This document shows, piece by piece, positions 2,575 to 25,258 of a DNA stretch of 64,000 bases. Position 1 is the stretch's first letter. Every line of letters begins with the position of its first letter. The stretch covers positions 132,122,001 to 132,186,000 of the forward strand of contig NC_058370.1 of NCBI RefSeq assembly GCF_018350175.1, read 5' to 3'. The notes under the pieces are model-generated. The model did no database searches. It was not told the DNA's origin and worked only from the letters and a program-made list of their open reading frames with translations. Both the position numbers and the translations under genes were made by a program. The DNA is from Felis catus (taxonomy: Eukaryota).

Positions 2575-2751
<177 letters not shown>

Positions 2752-3420
2752 TAATAAGCATGTTTGATATTCTTAATGATACTACTTTTAAATTGGGAGG
2801 TTTCATTTCAAATTTGTTCTGTGGCAATATTCATAACTAAATTAATGTTCCTCAATATCTTAAACTAATTTGTATTTATTAGCAATATTTCTTAATACTT
2901 TTATAATAGATTTCTTAATTTGGCACATTTTTTATGAATCCAAATAACTTTCAGAATCAGGGAAGTAGCCTTGAATTTGAATGAGTTTGAATTAATAAAT
3001 CACTATATGGAGAGCACACTTTGATGAATACTAGAATAAGCATAGTAATTCATTTTAACTTTATATATTTTTGACATTAATTCATTTTAAGAGTAAGAAA
3101 TATTTTACTTACAGAGTATAAAAAGCTGAAGACTGAAGAATGTATGTGCAAGTTACTGCTGCTTTCAATTTTAGTACCTATAATAATACCATATTCCTCT
3201 CCTTGTTTAGTAGATTTATCTATAGATAAAGCTGATCTGATATAGTAATAAATAGTTAATAAGGTTTTCATTTTTTGAAATGATAAAATGTAAACCATGT
3301 TACCAAAATTTTCTATGGTAAATCATAATGTTATTGATTAGTTATATATTATTAATATGTCATGTGCTGGTATCACACAATCACATATTGTAATTGATAT
3401 AAAACAATCTGGGTGGCTAG

Positions 3421-3801
<381 letters not shown>

Positions 3802-3953
3802 TGAATGCAAGGCACTGTTCTGTATTCTTTGGGGGATATAGAGTAAGACCAAATACGTATTTTTGAAGGAACTTATCAACTAATGAGGGATATAAGAGAA
3901 TAATATAGTCGTAATGAAGGGTAGAATGTGATATTTGCCTTATGAAAGGTACT

Positions 3954-4430
3954 GGGCCACCTGGGTGGCTCAGTTGGTTCAGTGTCTGACTTTGGCTCAG
4001 GTCATGATTTCATAGTTTGTGAGTTCGAGCCCAATCAGGCTTGCTGCTGTCACACAGAGCCAGCTTCGGATCTTCTGTTCCCCGCCCCCGCCCCCCCGCC
4101 CCCCCGCCCCCCGCTGTGCCTGCTGCTCCCCTGCTCTCTCTCCCTCTCTCTCATAAATAAATCTTGGGGCACCTGGGTTGCTCAGTCAGTTGAGCATCCA
4201 GCTTCAGCTCAGGCCATGATCTCACAGTTTGTGAGTTTGAGCCCTTCATCGGGCTCTCTGCTGTCAGCACAGAACCTGCTTCACTTCAAATCCTCCGTAC
4301 CCCTTTCTCTCTCTGCCCCTCCCCAGCTCACGCTCGCGCTCTCTCTCTCTCTCTCTCTCAAAAAAAAAAAAAAAAACCAAAAAAAAAAAAAACAACATTA
4401 AAAAATACATACATTTAAAAAAGGAAAAAA
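3954..4430 (+). mobile_element. Two tandem Can-SINEs (~3954-4162 and ~4166-4430)
   Basis: Two SINE heads, each with CT linker and A tail; flanking GAAAGGTAC/GAAAGGCAC near-TSD. Confidence 0.9.
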
Positions 4431-4962
4431 AGAAAGGCACCAAAATATCTGAGGTGGTTCAAATAGAATGATTCTGAAGAAAAATAAAAGTCACATCTTT
4501 GGGGTGAGGGTACGAAGTCAGGTAAGACCTCAGGGAAGGGGTGGCATTTGTAAAAACAAGAAAGGGTTTTGAGTGGCCGAGATGTGGGGAGGTTAGGTGA
4601 CAGTTGTGGGCAGGTGAACCATGGAAGCCAAAGTGTGGTGTGTTAGCACGCGTTGGGACAGAGTAGCGTGGTCCTAGGGCTCAAACACAAAGTGCTTATT
4701 GCTGTATTTTGATCATTTGGAAGACCTAATGAGATTGCGAATGTTTTGCCTACAATCTCTCCTTGTAGCACAGAGCCTGGCACAAGACCAGTAAATACTG
4801 ATTGCAGTGAGTATTGGGTGTAAAGATTAAAAATTGTTGGAGTTAAGCAGCAGGTGATTATTGTGTGCTATACTGAGGGACTTTTGACTTTGACACGTAG
4901 CGAGGCATTAAAGACATTGGAGAAACATATTTGAGAAACTTGGTACTTCCATGTATGGAATG

Positions 4963-5081
4963 GTAGGGGTGACCAACCATTATGGTTTGCCCAGGACCGA
5001 GGGGCTTCCTGGGATGTGACCAGGGACTTTCATGCTGAAACTGAGAAAATTCTAGGTAGACCAGGATGAGTTGGACACCCT
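4963..5081. mobile_element. MER81-like hAT MITE
   Basis: Inverted termini TAGGGGTGACCAAC...GTTGGACACCCTG and internal GGTTTGCCCAGGAC resemble the MER81 consensus as recalled. Confidence 0.65.
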
Positions 5082-5560
5082 GCCAACGGTAGTACTCTCA
5101 AAACTCTTGTCATGCTCACCGAGATGAGGATATGAGTGCCTGGAGAAACCCAAGCATATTTATAGGCAGTGAGGAAGGACCCAGTTAAAGTGAGATACTG
5201 ATATTTAAATAGAAGTGATGACTTATGTATTAAGACCTGGGAATCAAGAGATGTTATCTTTGAAAAGGTGGAGAGGGGTCTCTTTTTTAGAAGATATCTA
5301 GATAAGATAGTTCTAGGAACTCAAAATGAGATGAAGACTAGAACATCAGATAAGAGGGGGGGGCAGAACAAGTGCAGCATTTTAAATTATTGAGAATGAT
5401 ATAAATGTCTAAAGGGGGAAAACAGTGCTTCATTTAAAATATGTTGAAGTAAAAAAGAGAAATCTTTGTGGTTGGAGTTTAATTATGAGAATAATTTGGG
5501 GATATTAGAAAATGGATTAAAATGACATGCAAAGAATTTATCTCCTGTGTTTCCCTCTAG

Positions 5561-5621
5561 GTTATTAAGTGACTCTCCATCTTGCAGAGAAAATGATTCA
5601 ATACAGTCAAGGAAAAATGAA
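5561..5621 (+). CDS. ROCK2: ROCK2 exon 10 (LLSDSPSCRENDSIQSRKNE)
   Basis: ccctctag|G...GAA|gtatgt. Confidence 0.96.
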
Positions 5622-6218
5622 GTATGTACAAATGTTTACTATTTAGTCACATGTTCGACTAATTTAGTAATATCCATGTGTTTAAAAAGTTCATTTGATG
5701 CTACTTTTTGAACCATTTTCTGGTGTTCTTTTTTGTAATACAGTTCACAAAACATTGAGATGATGGATTTATTTGACAGGTAGTATTGTGGAAGATAGGT
5801 GGCTAGTAAAAAGATGAATTAAACATAGCTTTTAGGCATAGTTTTAATAGCAAAAAAGTGATAGGTTTATAAACATCTACAATCTCAGAAAATTTTATAA
5901 TCTTAGTACTCTAAAAGAATATAGATAATAAGCTATAAGGGTACAGAAATTGTGGAGAAATTAATATTTTGAGTGGGAATGAATTCAAACAAAGGTTAAT
6001 TTTATCAAACTAACAATATTTTGCAGCCTCTATAATTTGTAACCATACACAAAAGTAAATCGTGCGCACGCATACACGTTAATGAGGATGCTAACATTTT
6101 CTCCTTAAAATTTATAGAAAGTAAAAAGATTGGTTAGATAATTTTGGCGTGATTTATTTTAGGAATTTTATAAAGCATGCATACATTTTAGATTTCCTTT
6201 TTGTTTTGTTTTAAATAG

Positions 6219-6230
6219 GAAAGCCAAGAG
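6219..6230 (+). CDS. ROCK2: ROCK2 exon 11, 12-nt microexon (ESQE)
   Basis: T-rich tract, aaatag|GAAAGCCAAGAG|gtatgt; supplies the ESQE of ...RKNE-ESQE-IQKKLY. Confidence 0.94.
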
Positions 6231-6649
6231 GTATGTTGATGTCACTTATGTTGAAAAACTGAGAAAAACACATCCCTCTGACAATGTTTTGATAGAGCCA
6301 TTTTCCACCTAGCATTTGGAGTGCTACATCTACTTAAGAGAGAAGTTCCCAGCCTTGTTTCTACCAAGTATTTCTTTTATTATTGCCCCTATGGATTTAT
6401 TGTTTAAGTATCTATTATGTAATTTTCTTATTTTTATTTATTAAGGATATATAACTGATAGTAAGAATTTTGAATGAACAAGTGAAAATAAGCGTGATCA
6501 AATTATACTAATGTAATAATAGCCAAAAGTAGTTAAACATGACTTGTTCATTGGCCTGTGTGTTCTTATTAGGGAAAAATGATAGTTTTGCTTAAGATGT
6601 ATAAAATATTTAAGAAACCATGAGTTTCTTAAAGAAACCTAATCACTAG

Positions 6650-6870
6650 AAAGAATATTGGCCTTGGAATCTAATAGACTTGGATTGATTTTTTGGCACA
6701 GCCACTTATTAGCTAAGCCATCTAGAGAGTTACTCACCTTTTTTGAGGTTCAGTTTCTTTATTGAGTACATACAACACTACCTACCACCTTTTTAGGGTT
6801 GTTGTTAGGGTTGTTGAGACAGTATTTGTAAAGTGCCTAACATGGTACCTAAGGCATAAAAGGCACTCAA
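6650..6870. mobile_element. MIR-like SINE relic
   Basis: Degenerate GCCACTTATTAGCT...TTACTCACCT...CAGTTTCTT...TAGGGTTGTTG...GTAAAGTGCCTAACATGGTACCT core. Confidence 0.6.
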
Positions 6871-6950
6871 AAAGTTGAGCCCTTTATGAAGGTAATGATG
6901 CTCCAAAAATGGATTATTTAGTACGTAATATAATTGCAGTTGGTTTAAAG

Positions 6951-7055
6951 ATCAACATATCTGGCCTAGAAGAAGATGTAAAGCATGGCAAGGAAATGAC
7001 TTATAATCAATTAGCCGTCATTCCTGGAAGACTTACTGACCGTAACTCCTTATAG
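6951..7055 (+). pseudogene. Degenerate intronic copy of ROCK2 exon 17 (pseudo-exon; INISGLEEDVKHGKEMTYNQLAVIPGRLTDRNSL*)
   Basis: 6957-6991 matches 9589-9623 at 32/35 nt with the first 20 nt identical; weaker downstream match RLTD vs RFTD. Confidence 0.75.
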
Positions 7056-7537
7056 TAGTGTTCCCGGCACTGTGTAGAAAGATATAAAGAAGAACTTAAA
7101 TTCTCATTTTTAAGAGAAGTAATGTATTTTTGAGCAAGTGCAGTTAAATATTCCAAATATTTGTTTCAAATATAGACCTTTTCATCTTGTAAGTACACTG
7201 TGTGACAGTATTTTTACATAAATAATCTGCAGAAGAACAGTGGAGCATATCAGAGGGTATCCTTTATTCATAATGAATGAGAGACTTGGCGTCATAGAAG
7301 AATTCTGCCAAGATTAGAGCGTCTCACTCGTATATTTACGTAATGTTTATATACATAGAAAGCAAGAGATGGAGAATTTTTTCCTTATGTTGGTAAAAGT
7401 CACATTAAGAAGGTACAAAAACTGTACCTGTAAAGGATCTTATATGAAGCTTAAAAAACAGCTTATCCTTCTCTTTAAGCCTCTCATATTTTAAATGTGA
7501 CCAAAATTTATAATTGTAGTTTCTTGTTTCCGGACAG

Positions 7538-7617
7538 ATTCAGAAAAAACTATACACGTTAGAAGAACACCTTAGCACTGAGATACAAGCCAAAGAAGAA
7601 TTAGAGCAGAAGTGCAA
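7538..7617 (+). CDS. ROCK2: ROCK2 exon 12 (IQKKLYTLEEHLSTEIQAKEELEQKCK)
   Basis: gacag|ATT...AA|gtatgt. Confidence 0.96.
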
Positions 7618-7768
7618 GTATGTTGTTTAGATAACGAAATGTTGTCTTTTAAAATTTAAGTTCAAACGTTTTACCAAAAAGGAAGAGTTATAATTATATG
7701 ATCATCTTTGAATTTATACTAAGTAAATGTTTTTATTGTAAATCACTGTTTCTTTTGAAATCCTTTAG

Positions 7769-7817
7769 ATCTGTTAATACTCGCCTTGAGAAGGTAGCAA
7801 AGGAGCTAGAAGAGGAG
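7769..7817 (+). CDS. ROCK2: ROCK2 exon 13 (SVNTRLEKVAKELEEE)
   Basis: tttag|A...GAG|gtaaag. Confidence 0.96.
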
Positions 7818-8412
7818 GTAAAGTTGCTGTATGCTTTTCATTAAAAGTTTTGTTTGCTACAAGTTGTGATGCCTGCCTTCCCTGCAGGGAGTTGTCTTAG
7901 AACCATATTAACACCCATCTTGATATATAGTAAGACCCACCTTATGTTGCACTGGCGAACAGGTTACAGGATAACCTTGGTGATAAGCCTCATTTTGTTA
8001 TGGGTTTGCAAACTTGAGTGAATTTAGAATGTGTAGATACTTCACGTAAAAAAAATTTGCATTTGTGTCAGTTACTTGGCTTAACAACAGAAAGTGACCA
8101 TTGTTTCTTCTTTTAAATTTCTGTTCCTAACATTTCAGATCTATAGTTTATATTAAGTGAAGATGGTTCAGTGGTAATGGAAGTTACGGAAAGTTTGACT
8201 TTCAGTAGTAAACCATTAACAGTATGGTCTTAATAATTTAAGAGAGGTGTGCTATTTTGAAAGTAATGGAAAACGTTACTGTAAGTTTTAACAAAACAGC
8301 AGTTACAGCCTTTTTTAAAGTTCTTTTTTATCTGCTTGAAATACTAAAATAGTGTTTTCATTTGATTTTTATACATACTTTCCTTTGATAGTAACTTTAA
8401 GCATTATTTCAG

Positions 8413-8548
8413 ATTACCTTAAGGAAAAATGTGGAATCAGCATTAAGACAATTAGAAAGAGAAAAGGCACTTCTTCAGCACAAAAATGCAGAATATCAGC
8501 GGAAAGCTGATCACGAAGCAGACAAGAAACGAAATTTGGAAAACGATG
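8413..8548 (+). CDS. ROCK2: ROCK2 exon 14 (ITLRKNVESALRQLE...KRNLEND)
   Basis: ttcag|ATT...G|gtttgt; part of ORF 8431..8778. Confidence 0.96.
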
Positions 8549-8653
8549 GTTTGTGGTGTAGAATATTAAATACTTACCAAGAAAAAAAATTAAATGTGTA
8601 TGTACGTGTGTGTTGTCGAAGCTTGCCACTGAAATGCTTTTTTTTAATCACAG

Positions 8654-8745
8654 TTAACAGTTTAAAGGATCAACTTGAAGATTTGAAAAAAAGGAATCAG
8701 AACTCTCAAATATCCACTGAGAAAGTAAATCAACTCCAGAGACAA
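8654..8745 (+). CDS. ROCK2: ROCK2 exon 15 (VNSLKDQLEDLKKRNQNSQISTEKVNQLQRQ)
   Basis: cacag|TT...CAA|gtaggt. Confidence 0.96.
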
Positions 8746-8978
8746 GTAGGTCAATCTCCATTTGTAATAGGATATTGAATTTTCTTGATGATAACTTACT
8801 AATTTTAATTGGAAATGTTACAGAAAGGCCTTTGCCTCTGATTTTAAAGGGAAATCATTAGGAAACTATTTTGAGGTTTGTTTCTTACTTTAGTTTGTAA
8901 CAGGCTGATAAACAGAAGTATTTTCATCATATACACTCGTGTTTGTTGTTGTCTGTTTGATTTTGAATGGAATAACAG

Positions 8979-9225
8979 CTGGATGAAACCAATGCTTTGC
9001 TGAGAACAGAATCTGATACTGCAGCCCGATTAAGAAAAACCCAGGCAGAAAGTACAAAACAGATTCAGCAGCTGGAATCTAACAATAGAGATCTTCAAGA
9101 TAAAAATTGTCTGCTGGAGACTGCCAAGTTAAAACTTGAAAAGGACTTTATCAATCTTCAGTCAGTTCTAGAATCTGAAAGGAGGGACCGAACCCACGGA
9201 TCAGAGATAATTAATGACTTACAAG
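8979..9225 (+). CDS. ROCK2: ROCK2 exon 16 (LDETNALLRTESDTAARLRK...GSEIINDLQ)
   Basis: aacag|CTG...G|gtatta; ORF 8997..9239. Confidence 0.97.
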
Positions 9226-9583
9226 GTATTATAAAGTAGAGATTGCACTTGAATTCATCTTGATGATTTATATTTCGGAAATAACTTTAGATGATGGATG
9301 TATGTGCTGGAATAGCACATTTCTGAATATACTACTCTGTTATGTGAAGCATAACATACGGAATGCATTGATAGAAAATTTTATGAATAGAAGGTTTGCT
9401 TTCAAATAGTGTGAAATATTTTAAATTACCAAAAACCACCTCCCAAAGTGACGGTTTGGGTTCCAGTTGACTTAGCCATAAAGCACTCTACCAACAATTA
9501 TGAAACTTCTCAAAAATTTTTATTCTTAATTTAACATATATATACTTTGTGGGCTTATTGTTTTTAAAATGTTGCAATTTTAG

Positions 9584-9690
9584 GTAGAATATCTGGCCTA
9601 GAAGAAGACTTAAAGAATGGCAAAATCTTACTAGCAAAAGTAGAGATGGAGAAGAGACAACTACAGGAGAGATTTACTGATTTGGAAAAG
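9584..9690 (+). CDS. ROCK2: ROCK2 exon 17 (GRISGLEEDLKNGKILLAKVEMEKRQLQERFTDLEK)
   Basis: tttag|GT...AAG|gtaaaa. Confidence 0.96.
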
Positions 9691-10045
9691 GTAAAACATG
9701 TTCAGCTTTATATTTTGTAGGAAAATGACAAAGAGTTTTAGATTGGAAAACTTAACTCTAAAATAAGGGGTATCGGTATGGTTTCAGTGGAGGTTTCTCC
9801 CTAGGGACCCAAGGAAAACTTAGATTTTGACTACAACGTATCTTTAAAACGATAGAAAGTTACAATGGCTTTTGGCATTGAAAAGTTTTTCTTTAAAACT
9901 TCTGTAAGCCAGGGATGATTTTTAGGTTGTGTGCAGTTAAGGTGTTATTTTTGTTCACTTGTCCATTCTTTCAAGTATTTAATGTTATCATCTGTGGTAG
10001 AAATCTCAGGATGCAGTCTTTGCTTGCCTTTAACAGCCCCACAGT

Positions 10046-10163
10046 GGGGCCTCCCGGCTGTCTCAGACGGTAGAGCATGTGACTCTTGATCTCTAGGTCA
10101 TGAGTTCAAGCCCCCACGTTGGACGTGGAGCCTACTTAAAAAAAATAATAAATTAAAAAAAAA
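10046..10163 (+). mobile_element. Short, older Can-SINE (tRNA-derived head + A tail)
   Basis: GGCTGTCTCAGACGGTAGAGCATGTGACTCTTGATCT...GAGCCTACTTAAAAAA. Confidence 0.8.
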
Positions 10164-10425
10164 TACGATCTAAGGAGTAGTACCTAAAGTCACTAATAAA
10201 GTACACAGATAATTCTAACACAGCGTGGTAAACAGACTACTCGAAGAATGGACAGGGTATATTGGACGCACAGGACGAAGGCCTAATCTGACAGGGCAGG
10301 ATTGGTGGGCAGGGCAAAGGCACATTCTGAGTTGGGCAGGACAGCAGGAGCAAAAGTACAAGATGGGAAATAGAAAAGGCACAGCTGGTTTATTTAACGC
10401 TAACTGCTCGATAGTTCTGGAGTAT

Positions 10426-10615
10426 AGAGCAGGGGTCAACAGATTTTAATCTTTTAAGCAAAAGACAATGAATGCTTTAGGCTTTGAGGGCCATATAATC
10501 TGTTGCAACTCAGCTCTGCTGCAATACGTAAAGGAATGGGTGTAGCTGTGTTCCAGTGAAATGTTATAAAAATAGACATCAGGCCAAAATGCACCTGAAG
10601 ACTGCAGTGTGGTTC
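10426..10615. mobile_element. MER58-like hAT-Charlie fossil
   Basis: CAGGGGTCAAC...TTTAGGCTTTGAGGGCCATA...GCAACTCAGCTCTGC...GCTGTGTTCCAGTGAAA resembles MER58A. Confidence 0.6.
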
Positions 10616-11327
10616 TCATGTCAAGTGTGAGGAATTCACTGACCAGAATGAGCTACAGACCTAGGCATGAGCTGGATCATGTGAGAGTTTGAATATTCTG
10701 TTAAACTTAATTTCTCTAGGCAACAGACCCAGCCACTGAAGGGCTTTAAATTAGATGCTCTTTTTAGACATACATTTAAGATAGATCGTCGTGTTCCATG
10801 TGTGGAGAATAAATTTGAGGAGGACAAGATAAGAGGGGGGGAGACTAGTCAGAGACGTTTTCAGTAACTCAGATGATGGAGACTTAACTGGTACGGTGGT
10901 TAAAAGGATGGAAAATGGGGGTGAATCTGAGAAATATCTGGAGATAGAATATTTGGTAGCACTTAGTGATGGCTCAGATAAGGCATATGTGTGGTATTTA
11001 AGGAGGACTTCTAGGCTCTTACATGGTGACAAGATATATAATGGTAACAGTAATTCATAAAGAATAAAGGGGAGAGAAGAATGAAGGGAAATAGCTCTTT
11101 CAGAAGAAATGATGACAAAATCTATTTTAGTCCTAAGTTTGAGGTGCCTTAGGATGTTCGTAAAGGAGTAAACTATGTTGAAGCTAGAAATGTTTGAGAG
11201 TCATTGGTACAGAAGTAGCTGAAGCTGCGTGAATGCAAGAGCCTATCTCGGAAAAGATTGTTTAGAGCAATGGTTTTTCAGGGCAGAGTTGATTCTTCTG
11301 TTGTTGGATTGAAAAACCTCATTTTTA

Positions 11328-11628
11328 GGCGCTCCTGGGTGGCTCAGTTGGTTAAGCATCTGACTCTTGATTTTGGCTCAAGTCATGATCTCAACAGTTA
11401 GTGAGCTCAAGCCCCGCCTTGGGCTCTGCCCTGACCGTGTAGAGCCTGCTTGGGATTCATTCTCTCCCTCTCCCCCTCCCTCTCTCCCTCTCTCCCTCTC
11501 TCCCTCTCTCCCTCTCTCCCTCTCTCCCTCTCTCCCTCTCTCCCTCCCCCTCCCCCACTTTTCTGCCCCTACTCTGCGCATGCTCACTTGCTGTCTCTCT
11601 CAAAATAAACTTACAAAAAGAAAAAAAT
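11328..11628 (+). mobile_element. Can-SINE with expanded (CTCTCCCT)n linker
   Basis: SINE head, C/T tandem array ~11460-11555, AATAAA/A tail. Confidence 0.9.
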
Positions 11629-12349
11629 CATTTTCAGTATTAAGGATTTATTTGAAAAACAAAAGAAATATTTACATATATGATACAAACTATAGAAACA
11701 AAGAATTAGAAAATCTTTTGAGGATATAGAGAAAATAGATTGACTTCTATTATTAAAGTGTCCCAACTTAAAACAAGTCTCCTATGTGGAATATCAGGGT
11801 AAATGGTAGAGGATCCTGAAAATTTGTCGTCAGATACAGCAAAGGGAAATATTAGATAGGTTTTAAAGGTGAGAAATAATGATATAGAAGCTTGAAGTGG
11901 CTGAAGAGCGCCACCTCCAGAGAAGACCAGCATTTAAGGAATAGCTGGGGGGAAACTTCATAGGTGACAGAAAAGATGAGAACAGGAAGTGGGGAGCCAA
12001 GTGAGTGCACTCAGGTATGTCAAGGAAATAGTTTCAGGGCAACAGTGAGTCAAAATGGGGTAACTACTGAAAAGTGTTTGTCGAATCTGGTGGTGAGAAT
12101 ATCATGTGTTACTTCATTGAGATCACACACTCTCAGTGCAGATCTCCAAATGGTAGGGTGGAGGGATGGGGCTGTAGGTTCAGCAGGAGGTGAACAGGTG
12201 GATTCCGTGGATCATTGTTACAAGAAGTTTGAGTGAAGGGGGGAGGGAAAGTATTGAACATTCTTCGCTTGTAAAAAACAGCTTTATCAGTTTTTGAAAT
12301 TGTGAGCCAGTCTTTTTTGTTGATCGCTGCTATTCTAAATCTTTAATAG

Positions 12350-12509
12350 GAAAAGAACAACATGGAAATAGATATGACATACCAACTAAAAGTTATACAG
12401 CAGAGCTTAGAACAAGAAGAAGCTGAGCATAAGGCTACGAAAGCACGGCTGGCAGATAAAAATAAAATTTATGAATCCATTGAAGAAGCAAAATCAGAAG
12501 CCATGAAAG
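12350..12509 (+). CDS. ROCK2: ROCK2 exon 18 (EKNNMEIDMTYQLK...KNKIYESIEEAKSEAMK)
   Basis: aatag|GAA...G|gtatgc. Confidence 0.97.
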
Positions 12510-15163
12510 GTATGCCTGTTTCCTAAGAGGGTTTTTCTGCAGCATTTTCCTAAGAATGGATTCTGTAGTCAACTCTTGATTTTGAGAAATATTTTTTTAT
12601 ATTTTATTGTCAAATATTGAGAACTGGAAAGAAAAACATTAGGGAAGCTTTACATACATATCATTTTTTCTCTTTATGGCAACGATCATTTCTAAGATGT
12701 AAGTCCTAAATACTGAATTATTCAACCAAATGTAAGGATCAGAGAGAAATGAATATTTCAGTGATAGCAATAGTAACAGGCATAAAGAGCATGAGGTTCT
12801 AGACTTATCTTTTCAGATTTGGGGGGATTTGCTATTTTTGTAATATTTAGTTTGACATTTACCAGTTTGTATAACAAAATTGTTGCCAGTTTATGCAAAA
12901 TAAGTATTTTGGAAATAGTAGTTGACCTAACTAGAATACAAGCTCGTTGAATATTTTGAACTCTGTCATGATGAAGATACTAGCTAGATCTGGTCAAAGT
13001 CATCCACTACTAATGAATATAGGGTAAAATAACAGAGTTAACTTTTCCACAAACCAGCCTGTATCTTGGAATTGTCTTAGGATAATTTCTTGTTTTCCTA
13101 ACTGACTGTTCATAATTATGAAGGATTTGAAATTCCAAAGGAAATTAATAAAAGACTCTTGCGAAAGATTCATAGAACTCTTAAGCAGAAATTTTATTTT
13201 AAATTGAAGCATAACATTTATGAATAATTTGGAAAAAATAGCCTTTTAATTAATGAATGAAATTTAAATTGGAGCTTTCTCGGTTAAAATCAGTTCAGTT
13301 TAAGGCAGTAATTAAGGATGTTAAGAGATGAAATGAGTGCTTTATTTAGAAAAATCTAATTACAAGAGTGGAAATTAGTGGGCCATGTTTCCCTGTCAGG
13401 GGCCTGGAAGATAGAGTTGAATTTCTTTTGAGGTGTAATTCAAGTGCAGTCACATTGCATTTCTCGCATTTGTAATACACACGTGTGACCACCACTCAAA
13501 ACAAGTCATAGAATCTGTGTTTTCATCACCTACTCAGTAAGTTCACTTATGCCCCCTGTCTGTTCTCTGTGCCCACATTAGAGTGATTGTTTTTTTAAGT
13601 GAGTATATCTGTCCATGTGTTATCTCTGAACTGATAAAAATGAACCAATTCAGAGTAATAGTACCTACCATTTTTTTTTTCAAACTCCTTTTTAGAATAC
13701 TAACATGAGATGTATGGTGACTTTCATAGTTTATAGGAGTACACAAAATTTAAATGTTGCTGGTGCTCAGACCGGCTCTAAAAGCCTTTGGCTTTTCCAC
13801 TGCCATTCCGTAGCTTCCTTGATTAAGACTATGGCTTACTAATGAAAACTAGTCATGTGACCTTGTCTAGTTACTTAACCTTTTTTGTGCCTTGTTTCTT
13901 CTTAGACAGGTGTAAGAGTTTTAGGTTGTTTTGAAGACCCAAGTGCAATGACACGTGAAAATGCTTAGAAATATTAGCTGTTATTAGTAGAACGTGAAGA
14001 ATAGTTTCGTTTTTTCCACACTTTTGAAGGCAGTTCATTGAAAAGTGAAAATTCATAGGCTTAATTTTCCCTTATATAACTTTGTAATACGATAATTCAA
14101 TATCGAGCATTAGGTATGAAACAGCAGAGGAGCCCAATTGGATTTGAAAAGATTTTCTAATCAGTACATCAAAAGGTAATCCTTTAATGGTAATAACTGA
14201 CATTTAATATGAAATCACTTGTTTAGACATAAACTTTGCCTGTTCTTCACTTTTAAAAGCCTTTTCTGATTAATAAAACAAATTAAAAGTTCATTACAAA
14301 TCATTTAGAAAATTCAGGAAAGTATAAAGAAGTAAGTAAAGATTAACCACAATTTTACTAATCAGGATGCTATTTTGTATATTTTCTGAAATTTTTATAC
14401 CCTTTTTGCTTTTTTTCTTTGAAAATAATACTGTGAACATTCTCTTTAGGTCTTTTTAACATTGTCCTTAAATACTGAGCACTTATCAAATTCTTCTTGT
14501 ATGCCAACCAGCTATTAAGTGCCACACAGATAGTAACTAAGAATCTTCATAACATCCCTGTAAGGGACAACAGGTACTGGTATCATTCTACAGATGAGGA
14601 AATTGAGCCTCAGAGAGCTTAACTAACGTGCCCTTGTAAATAATTAGGATGTGTCAGAGACAGGGTTTAACCTTAGGAACTTTGGTCCCAGCGGCTTGTC
14701 CTTTGCCATTTCCCCAAAGCATAATTGTCCTTCTCTGCATAGTAATATGCTAATATGGAAAGAGCCATAGACGTCATAGAATCTACCCGGGATGTTTTAG
14801 GGTAAGAAAAGTGACACCAAGAGGCACAGGGCAGCAGGAAAATAAAATACGTCTTTATTAAAAAGATGTAAGCCTCTTTTAGAATCATAAGTGAAGGCAC
14901 AATTTTACTTCAGTTAGAATAGATGTAATATTGCAGAGTGGTCGATTTTTCTGGACACTGGAAATAAAACTCCTGATTTCTAAGCGTGAAACTGTTGACA
15001 TTTCAAACACATTAGGGAGAGTGATGAAAATATTAAATTGGAAATTAAAAAAAATGTTTTTAAGGCAGCATCATTTACAACAGTTTTCATAGCATGGTGT
15101 CACGTATTTGATATGCCTTTTTGGTATGTGAATGCACAACTCTGTCCATTTTTGTGGCAATAG

Positions 15164-15324
15164 AAATGGAGAAAAACCTCTCAGAGGAAAGGACGTTAAA
15201 GCAGAAGGTGGAAAACCTGTTGCTGGAAGCTGAGAAGAGATGCTCTATATTAGACTGTGACCTCAAACAGTCACAGCAGAAAATAAATGAACTCCTTAAG
15301 CAGAAGGATGTGCTAAATGAAGAT
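15164..15324 (+). CDS. ROCK2: ROCK2 exon 19 (EMEKNLSEERTLKQKVE...KDVLNED)
   Basis: aatag|AA...GAT|gtgagt. Confidence 0.96.
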
Positions 15325-20804: not shown

Positions 20805-20965
20805 GTACAGACCGAGATTCTTATCTCTTTTGTTGATAACTGGGTACTCAGCTCCTAGAACAGTACCTGCTGTGCCCTCAGTAAGAATTTGTCGATGAAG
20901 TGTATTAGAAACTTTGACTTCCTAGTGAAAATTGAACATTAAAATTATGTATCATTAAAATGTAG

Positions 20966-24382: not shown

Positions 24383-24562
24383 GCTGTGAACAAGTTGGCC
24401 GAGATCATGAATCGAAAAGAACCTGTCAAGCGTGGTAGTGACACTGATGTGCGGAGAAAAGAGAAAGAGAATAGAAAGCTACACATGGAGCTTAAATCTG
24501 AACGTGAAAAACTGACCCAGCAGATGATCAAGTATCAGAAAGAACTGAATGAAATGCAGGCT
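24383..24562 (+). CDS. ROCK2: ROCK2 exon 26 (AVNKLAEIMNRKE...KELNEMQA)
   Basis: ttaag|GCT...GCT|gtaaga. Confidence 0.97.
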
Positions 24563-24741
24563 GTAAGAATACTTTCTGAACTCTAGATTGAAGGCTTCTT
24601 TTTAAGAAGAATTGTTTTCATGTCTGCACATATTTTATTGGTTATAGGACATTTCTGTTACTTCATAATTGTTAATTGCATTAAAGGAAATTATGAGGTA
24701 TATGGCATCAGATTAATTTGATGTAATTTANNNNNNNNNNN

Positions 24742-24910
24742 NNNNNNNNNNNNNNNNNNNNNNNNNNNNNNNNNNNNNNNNNNNNNNNNNNNNNNNNNNN
24801 NNNNNNNNNNNNNNNNNNNNNNNNNNNNNNNNNNNNNNNNNNNNNNNNNNNNNNNNNNNNNNNNNNNNNNNNNNNNNNNNNNNNNNNNNNNNNNNNNNNN
24901 NNNNNNNNNN
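24742..24910 (+). CDS. ROCK2: ROCK2 exon 27, inferred inside N-gap 24731-24910 (expected QIAEESQIR...DDGFP, 169 nt)
   Basis: Not visible. The expected segment is absent elsewhere, the gap is 180 nt and is followed directly by a donor-like GTATGG; flanking phases (0 then 1) fit a 169-nt exon. Confidence 0.75.
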
Positions 24911-25258
24911 GTATGGATTTCTTTTCAGCTCTTAGGCTATTTTTATTAAACGACTTCGTCTTAAAGATGAAGCAATTGATTGTTTTAAGCCCTGTGATTG
25001 ATTCTGCTCTTGAGAAAAATGTTTGTCATTTCTTTAAGAAAAGCCTACTCCTTGGAGTGGGGATTCAAATGACAGTTTAAACTTACAGTGTTTATTGATT
25101 TTTGACAAAAATGTTTGCGAAACAATGCAAAAGAAAATTCCACATATTTGCTTAAGTTAGCTCTTTATGTATTACAGGAAGCTCTCTTTCCAGGTTTTCA
25201 TTTTATTTTCTCTTAACTTCTTTCTGCATTCTTACTTCCTCTCATGCTGGATGTTTAG

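Follow-up and report, generated by a model that had tools for sequence, protein, structure and literature searches.

Intron 11 of the cat ROCK2 gene holds a short segment that reads like the start of exon 17 of the same gene, and this raises the question of whether the segment is a working part of the gene or the relic of an old duplication. The DNA analysed here (the window) is a stretch of 64,000 nt from Felis catus (NC_058370.1, positions 132,122,001 to 132,186,000, forward strand), which contains ROCK2 from exon 8 onward, introns 1–7 lying outside. Twenty-five ROCK2 exons, 3162 nt in total, were mapped and are numbered as in the original prediction. The exon at 3470–3629 is identical in 50 of 50 residues to solved ROCK2 chains, and the twelve exons from 2590 to 15324 could be joined into a frame of 452 residues without a stop. 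Exon 11 (6219–6230, plus strand) is 12 nt long and has phase 0 at both ends. Exon 12, according to the exon map, occupies 7538–7617 on the plus strand, and exon 17 (9584–9690, plus strand), which is 107 nt long and starts in phase 1, has AG/GT boundaries and an open frame.

When the 25 exons were compared with the window by blastn, exon 17 matched intron 11 with E 5e-9, the runner-up among the exons reaching E 0.02. The matching segment in the intron (6957–6991, plus strand; hereafter the copy) agrees in 32 of 35 nt with the 5′ third of exon 17 (E 5e-9 to 7e-8), and its counterpart, the donor segment at 9589–9623 on the plus strand, was placed inside the exon by the boundaries and open frame of the latter. 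This is the single strong donor match within the 64-kb window. The identity of 6957–6976 to 9589–9608 that had been claimed holds at all 20 positions, as does the extension to 32 of 35 nt: the match reaches 6991, with mismatches at 6977, 6978 and 6984. The copy lies 2632 nt upstream of its donor, on the same strand.

An assembly artefact had been named earlier as an outcome that would dispose of the segment, and the window does contain 11 assembly gaps. However, all 22 sampled words of 6860–7120 were present in 20 of the 24 sequencing runs listed, which come from 10 studies with 2 organism labels (one study may be the source). None of the 24 runs is recorded as RNA, so they speak neither for nor against splicing. 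Orthologues with matching flanks were found in seven protein clusters, and the copy carries three mismatches to the exon. The artefact is refuted by the runs and the orthologue clusters, and its probability is practically negligible. Scans for orthologous DNA gave 552 and 502 pattern matches in two metagenome collections, none of them confirmed, and no match in a motif scan of a genome collection; these collections are mostly microbial, and a null result was expected.

The age and the decay of the copy were read from proteins predicted across it in other lineages. A profile search of 42 candidate proteins gave seven matches, comprising one near cluster, with four near-identical members including the window's own sequence, and six distant clusters. 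The distant clusters are 59–70% identical to the frame of the window, and their flanks continue to match the window flanks in other frames. This level of identity is the expectation from neutral change of 0.18–0.26 per site, which we take to be the depth of the cat–dog split. On such protein comparisons, the copy would have a minimum age of about that depth. Each of the six has ISGLEED-V/T/L-KNGK, at most one residue being different. The Asn of exon 17 is kept in six of six, where the window has His, and the Leu of exon 17 is kept in two (P0009 and P0010). From these shared residues it follows that the copy began closer to the exon than it is in the cat. In a separate search, two of six matches (P0007 and P0008) were dropped as chance, being long repetitive proteins with 32–37% identity.

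The original prediction had presented the segment as a unit in frame with exon 11, and across the distant clusters this frame is not conserved, its end differing in five of the six. The stop is the same as that of the window in one (P0002); P0009 and P0010 end right after MTYN, the ATG being absent; and the remaining three clusters (P0006, P0012 and P0011/P0013) have shifted tails. These ends were read from proteins, not from DNA, and because lineages with a broken frame escape a protein search, the decay is understated. The flanks, judged by the same protein-level proxy, share 7–9 of 16 residues with the distant clusters on one side and 4 of 11 on the other, short of the strong conservation expected around a poison or alternative terminal exon.

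How far does the duplication extend? The segment had been described as a degenerate duplicate of the whole of exon 17, with a weaker match further on, and neither part of this description is borne out. About one third of the exon was copied (35 of 107 nt). The clear match begins 5 nt inside exon 17 and ends within it, so that the acceptor and the donor site of the exon are absent from the copy. Outside the copy, ungapped identity on the same diagonal is at background, with 9/30 and 8/30 upstream and 6/30 and 7/30 downstream (20–30%). The proposed later match fares no better: aligned with the remainder of exon 17, 6995–7095 reaches a score of 21, the average of 894 random tiles being 20.5 (p 0.41).

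The bases of this later match probably belong to a different element. The tail at 7004–7095 (minus strand) aligns on the opposite strand to 4725–4824, 20815–20914 and 10200–10299, with scores of 39.5, 39 and 38 compared with 21 against exon 17. Each of these scores matches or exceeds the highest of the null. The alignment to 20815 spans the exact bases of the later match. Since the tail fits dispersed remnants far better than it fits exon 17, it is most simply an old interspersed repeat, presumably related to the 3′ end of an L2 element, which it resembles. Neither the 20815 copy, which had been retrieved with the tail, nor the 4725 copy, already met in an earlier comparison, gives an independent test; of the independent ones, 3775 gave p 0.08, 29355 gave p 0.16, and 10200 was the top null tile. 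The tail at 7004–7095 was not recovered by a profile built from seven other remnants that had been chosen by eye. Upstream of the copy lies another old interspersed repeat (6694–6860, plus strand), with an nhmmer match to 14498–14656 on the minus strand (E 0.015), which we take for a MIR-like element.

These flanks bear on the possibility that a whole exon 17 with its surroundings was duplicated long ago and decayed heavily, and that its first 35 nt were later refreshed by gene conversion. Multi-species flank profiles do show a weak likeness to the surroundings of exon 17, their scores being reached by 16 of 330 tiles for the end of intron 16 (p about 0.05) and by 13 of 330 for the rest of exon 17 (p about 0.04). 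The DNA of the upstream flank gave p 0.009 by shuffling, and the Leu of P0009 and P0010 equals that of the exon. However, the profile alignments need gaps and are among several that were tried, the diagonal identity outside the block stays at background, and the downstream flank is much closer to the dispersed repeat remnants. A refreshed whole-exon duplicate is thus improbable.

The features of the copy point, with good though not complete confidence, to a proximal repair-mediated duplication which has since been drifting neutrally with the intron. A germline DNA break would have arisen in intron 11, between the two old repeat remnants. Its repair would have briefly used DNA of the same gene, 2.6 kb away, as the template, so that the beginning of exon 17 came to stand in the intron as a direct copy of 35 nt. 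The event would predate the split of the window's lineage from the distant orthologues, and the copy, lacking splice sites of its own, would then have changed together with the intron. Similarity ends sharply at both borders of the copy. The sequence has no poly(A/T) tail at the copy, and the longest repeat common to both flanks as a possible target-site duplication is 5 nt and does not abut it, although age could erase a short one.

Duplications of this kind are documented in PMC2671141 (Pace, Sen, Batzer and Feschotte 2009). As given in the passages of that study, 824 of 1136 human duplicons have their donor within 5 kb; such proximal duplications are 50–619 nt long (median 147), have repair-type ends and no poly(A) tails, and diverge at near the neutral rate, and 192 such events are reported for the dog. 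Among the 824 donors, four were partial exon/intron segments and two were full exons, both of the latter without coding constraint. The main text of the study makes no mention of ROCK. The ROCK2 copy shares with these duplications, so far as the passages describe them, its short length, an apparently single-copy state (one match within the 64-kb window), a donor on the same chromosome within 5 kb and more than 50 nt away, an intronic acceptor and the lack of poly(A). It departs from them in that its 35 nt fall short of the 50-nt minimum used in the study and that it lies beside, rather than inside, a recognisable repeat. It is also too old for its breakpoints to be read without an outgroup, and the empty site was not seen. 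Judged by its sequence, the copy is likely to be a member of this class, and the earlier view of it as a duplication relic that may be inert gains support.

Since no part of the copy reaches beyond a single exon, the 35 nt by themselves may have been templated by RNA. A fuller version of this idea is that a fragment of spliced ROCK2 mRNA, exon 17 followed by exon 18, was reverse-transcribed into its own intron and then suffered an internal deletion. The 20 residues after the copy do resemble exon 18 in order, with a score reached by 37 of 8781 intronic control peptides and by none of 5000 shuffles. At the DNA level, however, support for this resemblance is absent (p 0.12–0.16), and a multi-species profile does not favour exon 18, the scores being reached by 75 of 330 and 286 of 330 tiles. 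Half of the resemblance falls inside the repeat remnant, and the RLTD motif after the copy, which contributes to it, reads RVID or RLID in other lineages. Poly(A) and a target-site duplication are lacking, and the clear match spans no exon–exon junction. We regard this origin as highly improbable, and return to local repair as the preferred account of the copy.

A relic that drifts with its intron is expected to change freely, and the copied codons were examined on this point. The 12 codons of the copy carry 5 residue changes, compared with 9.1–9.5 expected from neutral simulation over an assumed tree (p 0.051–0.064). When the next 7 codons were added, p fell to 0.02–0.03, with a boundary chosen after the data had been seen. 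GLEED is invariant across the clusters (p 0.008–0.017), and the pairwise comparison with P0002 over the 19 codons gave p about 0.002. The Lys whose codon supplies a candidate splice AG (described below) is likewise invariant, at the protein level, where AAA and AAG are indistinguishable. Both the search and the anchoring favour a conserved block, and the search also favours an open frame; this inflates the deficit of changes, which still carries some weight. When the distant clusters were taken alone, no contrast was seen, with 8 changes in the 19 codons of the core and 7 in the 16 of the 5′ flank. The deficit is thus a hint from the sequence comparison, not evidence of function.

Such a deficit, falling in a GA-rich core 0.7 kb from a microexon, would suit weak retention of the copy as a cis element, such as a purine-rich site that binds a protein or acts as a decoy and so adjusts the splicing of the 12-nt exon. 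However, the statistics are borderline and come from proteins rather than DNA, and within the distant clusters by themselves conservation of the core does not exceed that of the 5′ flank. In addition, the window offers no complementary partner (best inverted match E 1.6; introns 1–7 lie outside it), and no Rfam family was found, the one match (E 3.8) lying elsewhere in the intron. A role as a cis element is therefore very unlikely.

The open frame through the copy was considered next to these results. It runs from stop to stop over 6879–7055 (plus strand), with an ATG at 6909 and 48 codons. It is a chance frame, and because gene callers predicted a protein from it, the orthologues came to light. 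An AG at 6949–6950 does open 34 codons from 6951 to the TAG at 7053–7055 in phase 0 with the exon at 6219–6230, as had been predicted. However, there is nothing unusual about the frame staying open behind the copy: 22 open codons occur at 3275 of 13834 intronic positions (24%), and 46 open codons at 778 of 12957. No Pfam family was found for the frame, a protein atlas gave no match of use, and a longer protein carrying the peptide of the copy was found in none of the nine candidates scored, which is a weak test. The frame 6909–7052 is present in public protein collections as a predicted protein of 48 residues. Such intronic protein calls can date intronic DNA and are not evidence of translation.

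Splice signals were scored with matrices made from the 25 acceptors and 25 donors of ROCK2 itself, with decoy AGs and GTs as the null. The candidate acceptor (AG at 6949–6950, in the context AAG, plus strand, phase 0), which is not the acceptor of exon 17, reaches 1.7 bits, at the 78th percentile of decoy AGs. Three of the 25 true acceptors score as low, and 24 of the 99 AGs of intron 11 score higher. It has an A at −3, as in 1 of 25 true acceptors, and 50% pyrimidines. A GT at 6978–6979 (plus strand), absent from the original prediction and created by one of the mismatches to exon 17, would close an in-frame 27-nt microexon (6951–6977) and scores 5.1 bits, at the 92nd percentile of decoy GTs. 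In four of the six distant clusters, Thr or Leu stands in place of the Val whose codon provides this GT. The donor first proposed (GT at 7042–7043, plus strand) scores 1.7 bits, at the 67th percentile of decoy GTs and below all 25 true donors, and the distant clusters either have Tyr at its codon or have lost that codon. Both of these near donors lack the G at −1 and the G at +5, a combination seen in 0 of 25 true donors. Several GTs farther downstream score 5–6 bits. Use of the donor after 7041 would, as claimed, shift the frame, giving a 91-nt exon and an early stop in exon 12. Neither AATAAA nor ATTAAA occurs between the stop at 7053–7055 and exon 12.

These data allow one to weigh the reading in which the AG at 6949–6950 serves a low-level alternative exon, be it the 27-nt microexon, a poison exon (with a donor after 7041, or later at 7118, 7123 or 7188) or a terminal exon giving a kinase-only ROCK2. 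In its favour are phase 0 with the open frame, an acceptor within the range of true sites, the better-scoring GTs downstream, the slightly raised conservation of the codons in the copy and the Lys at the AG, which does not vary. Against it, the acceptor is surpassed by 24 of the 99 AGs of the same intron and has 50% pyrimidines, the near donors lack two G positions that no true donor of the gene lacks together, the donor codons and the stop are not kept in the distant clusters, a canonical poly(A) hexamer is absent, and the weak test for a longer protein was negative. We consider such an exon quite unlikely. The suggestion of a poison exon or kinase-only product received no positive support, the splice sites being weak, the hexamer lacking and the frame end differing in most distant clusters. 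The premise that ROCK cut at its C-terminus is constitutively active agrees with the passages of PMC4653301. The inert relic remains the preferred reading, and we infer that the copy is never, or only rarely, spliced.

Other systems can be compared as far as the passages of the respective papers describe them. The copy resembles templated sequence insertion polymorphisms (PMC5110952) in being a short templated insert at a seemingly random place; those insertions have distant templates and are polymorphic, whereas the ROCK2 copy is local and common to several lineages. Tandemly duplicated, mutually exclusive exons, such as exons 5a/5b of SCN-alpha (10.1101/2025.08.16.670673), also show intronic homology to an exon of the same gene. 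Unlike in that case, exons 12–16 intervene in ROCK2, 35 of 107 nt are represented, the phases differ (0 and 1) and the splice sites were not copied. A literature search covering the main texts of part of the literature found no exon or copy in ROCK2 intron 11. The sole ROCK2 splice variant named in the passages of PMC4653301 is ROCK2m, whose 57-residue insert would be encoded by 25259–25429 and is unrelated to the copy; this 171-nt exon with AG/GT ends lies 3′ of the Rho-binding region and fits the muscle insertion.

Elsewhere in the locus, the exon that ends at 24562 does so in phase 0 and the exons after it open in phase 1. Given this clash, the assembly must lack one or more coding exons of ROCK2; within the intervening 24563–25258, the missing sequence probably sits in the N gap at 24731–24910. 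Towards the 3′ end of ROCK2, positions 32110–32172, with TTTTAG before them and GTAAGT after, form a short candidate for an alternative exon; they follow the exon that ends at 30524 and precede what is probably the last exon, near 39370. In intron 7, positions 1–1290 resemble LINE-1 sequence from the 3′ part of the element, and the dispersed short repeats of the window resemble the cat-family type of carnivore SINE.

Taken together, the segment is a real and old local copy of 35 nt, most likely an inert repair scar. An inert copy would be a neat case of templated repair at short range in which coding DNA was copied backwards into an intron of its own gene, and it would be usable as a presence/absence marker for mammal phylogeny, nothing more. 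There is a slim chance that, in carnivores, the scar next to the ROCK2 microexon has been co-opted, either as an exon that is seldom used or as a splicing element; the slightly low number of changes among the copied codons, together with the unvarying Lys at the AG, would then be the mark of this co-option. One form of co-option would be the 27-nt in-frame microexon, placing nine coiled-coil-like residues beside the kinase domain, and another a poison or terminal exon setting the level of ROCK2 or releasing a kinase-only form. If spliced, the copy would represent the birth of an exon from a repair scar in a dosage-sensitive kinase, and may offer a route to a form of ROCK2 without its autoinhibitory C-terminus.
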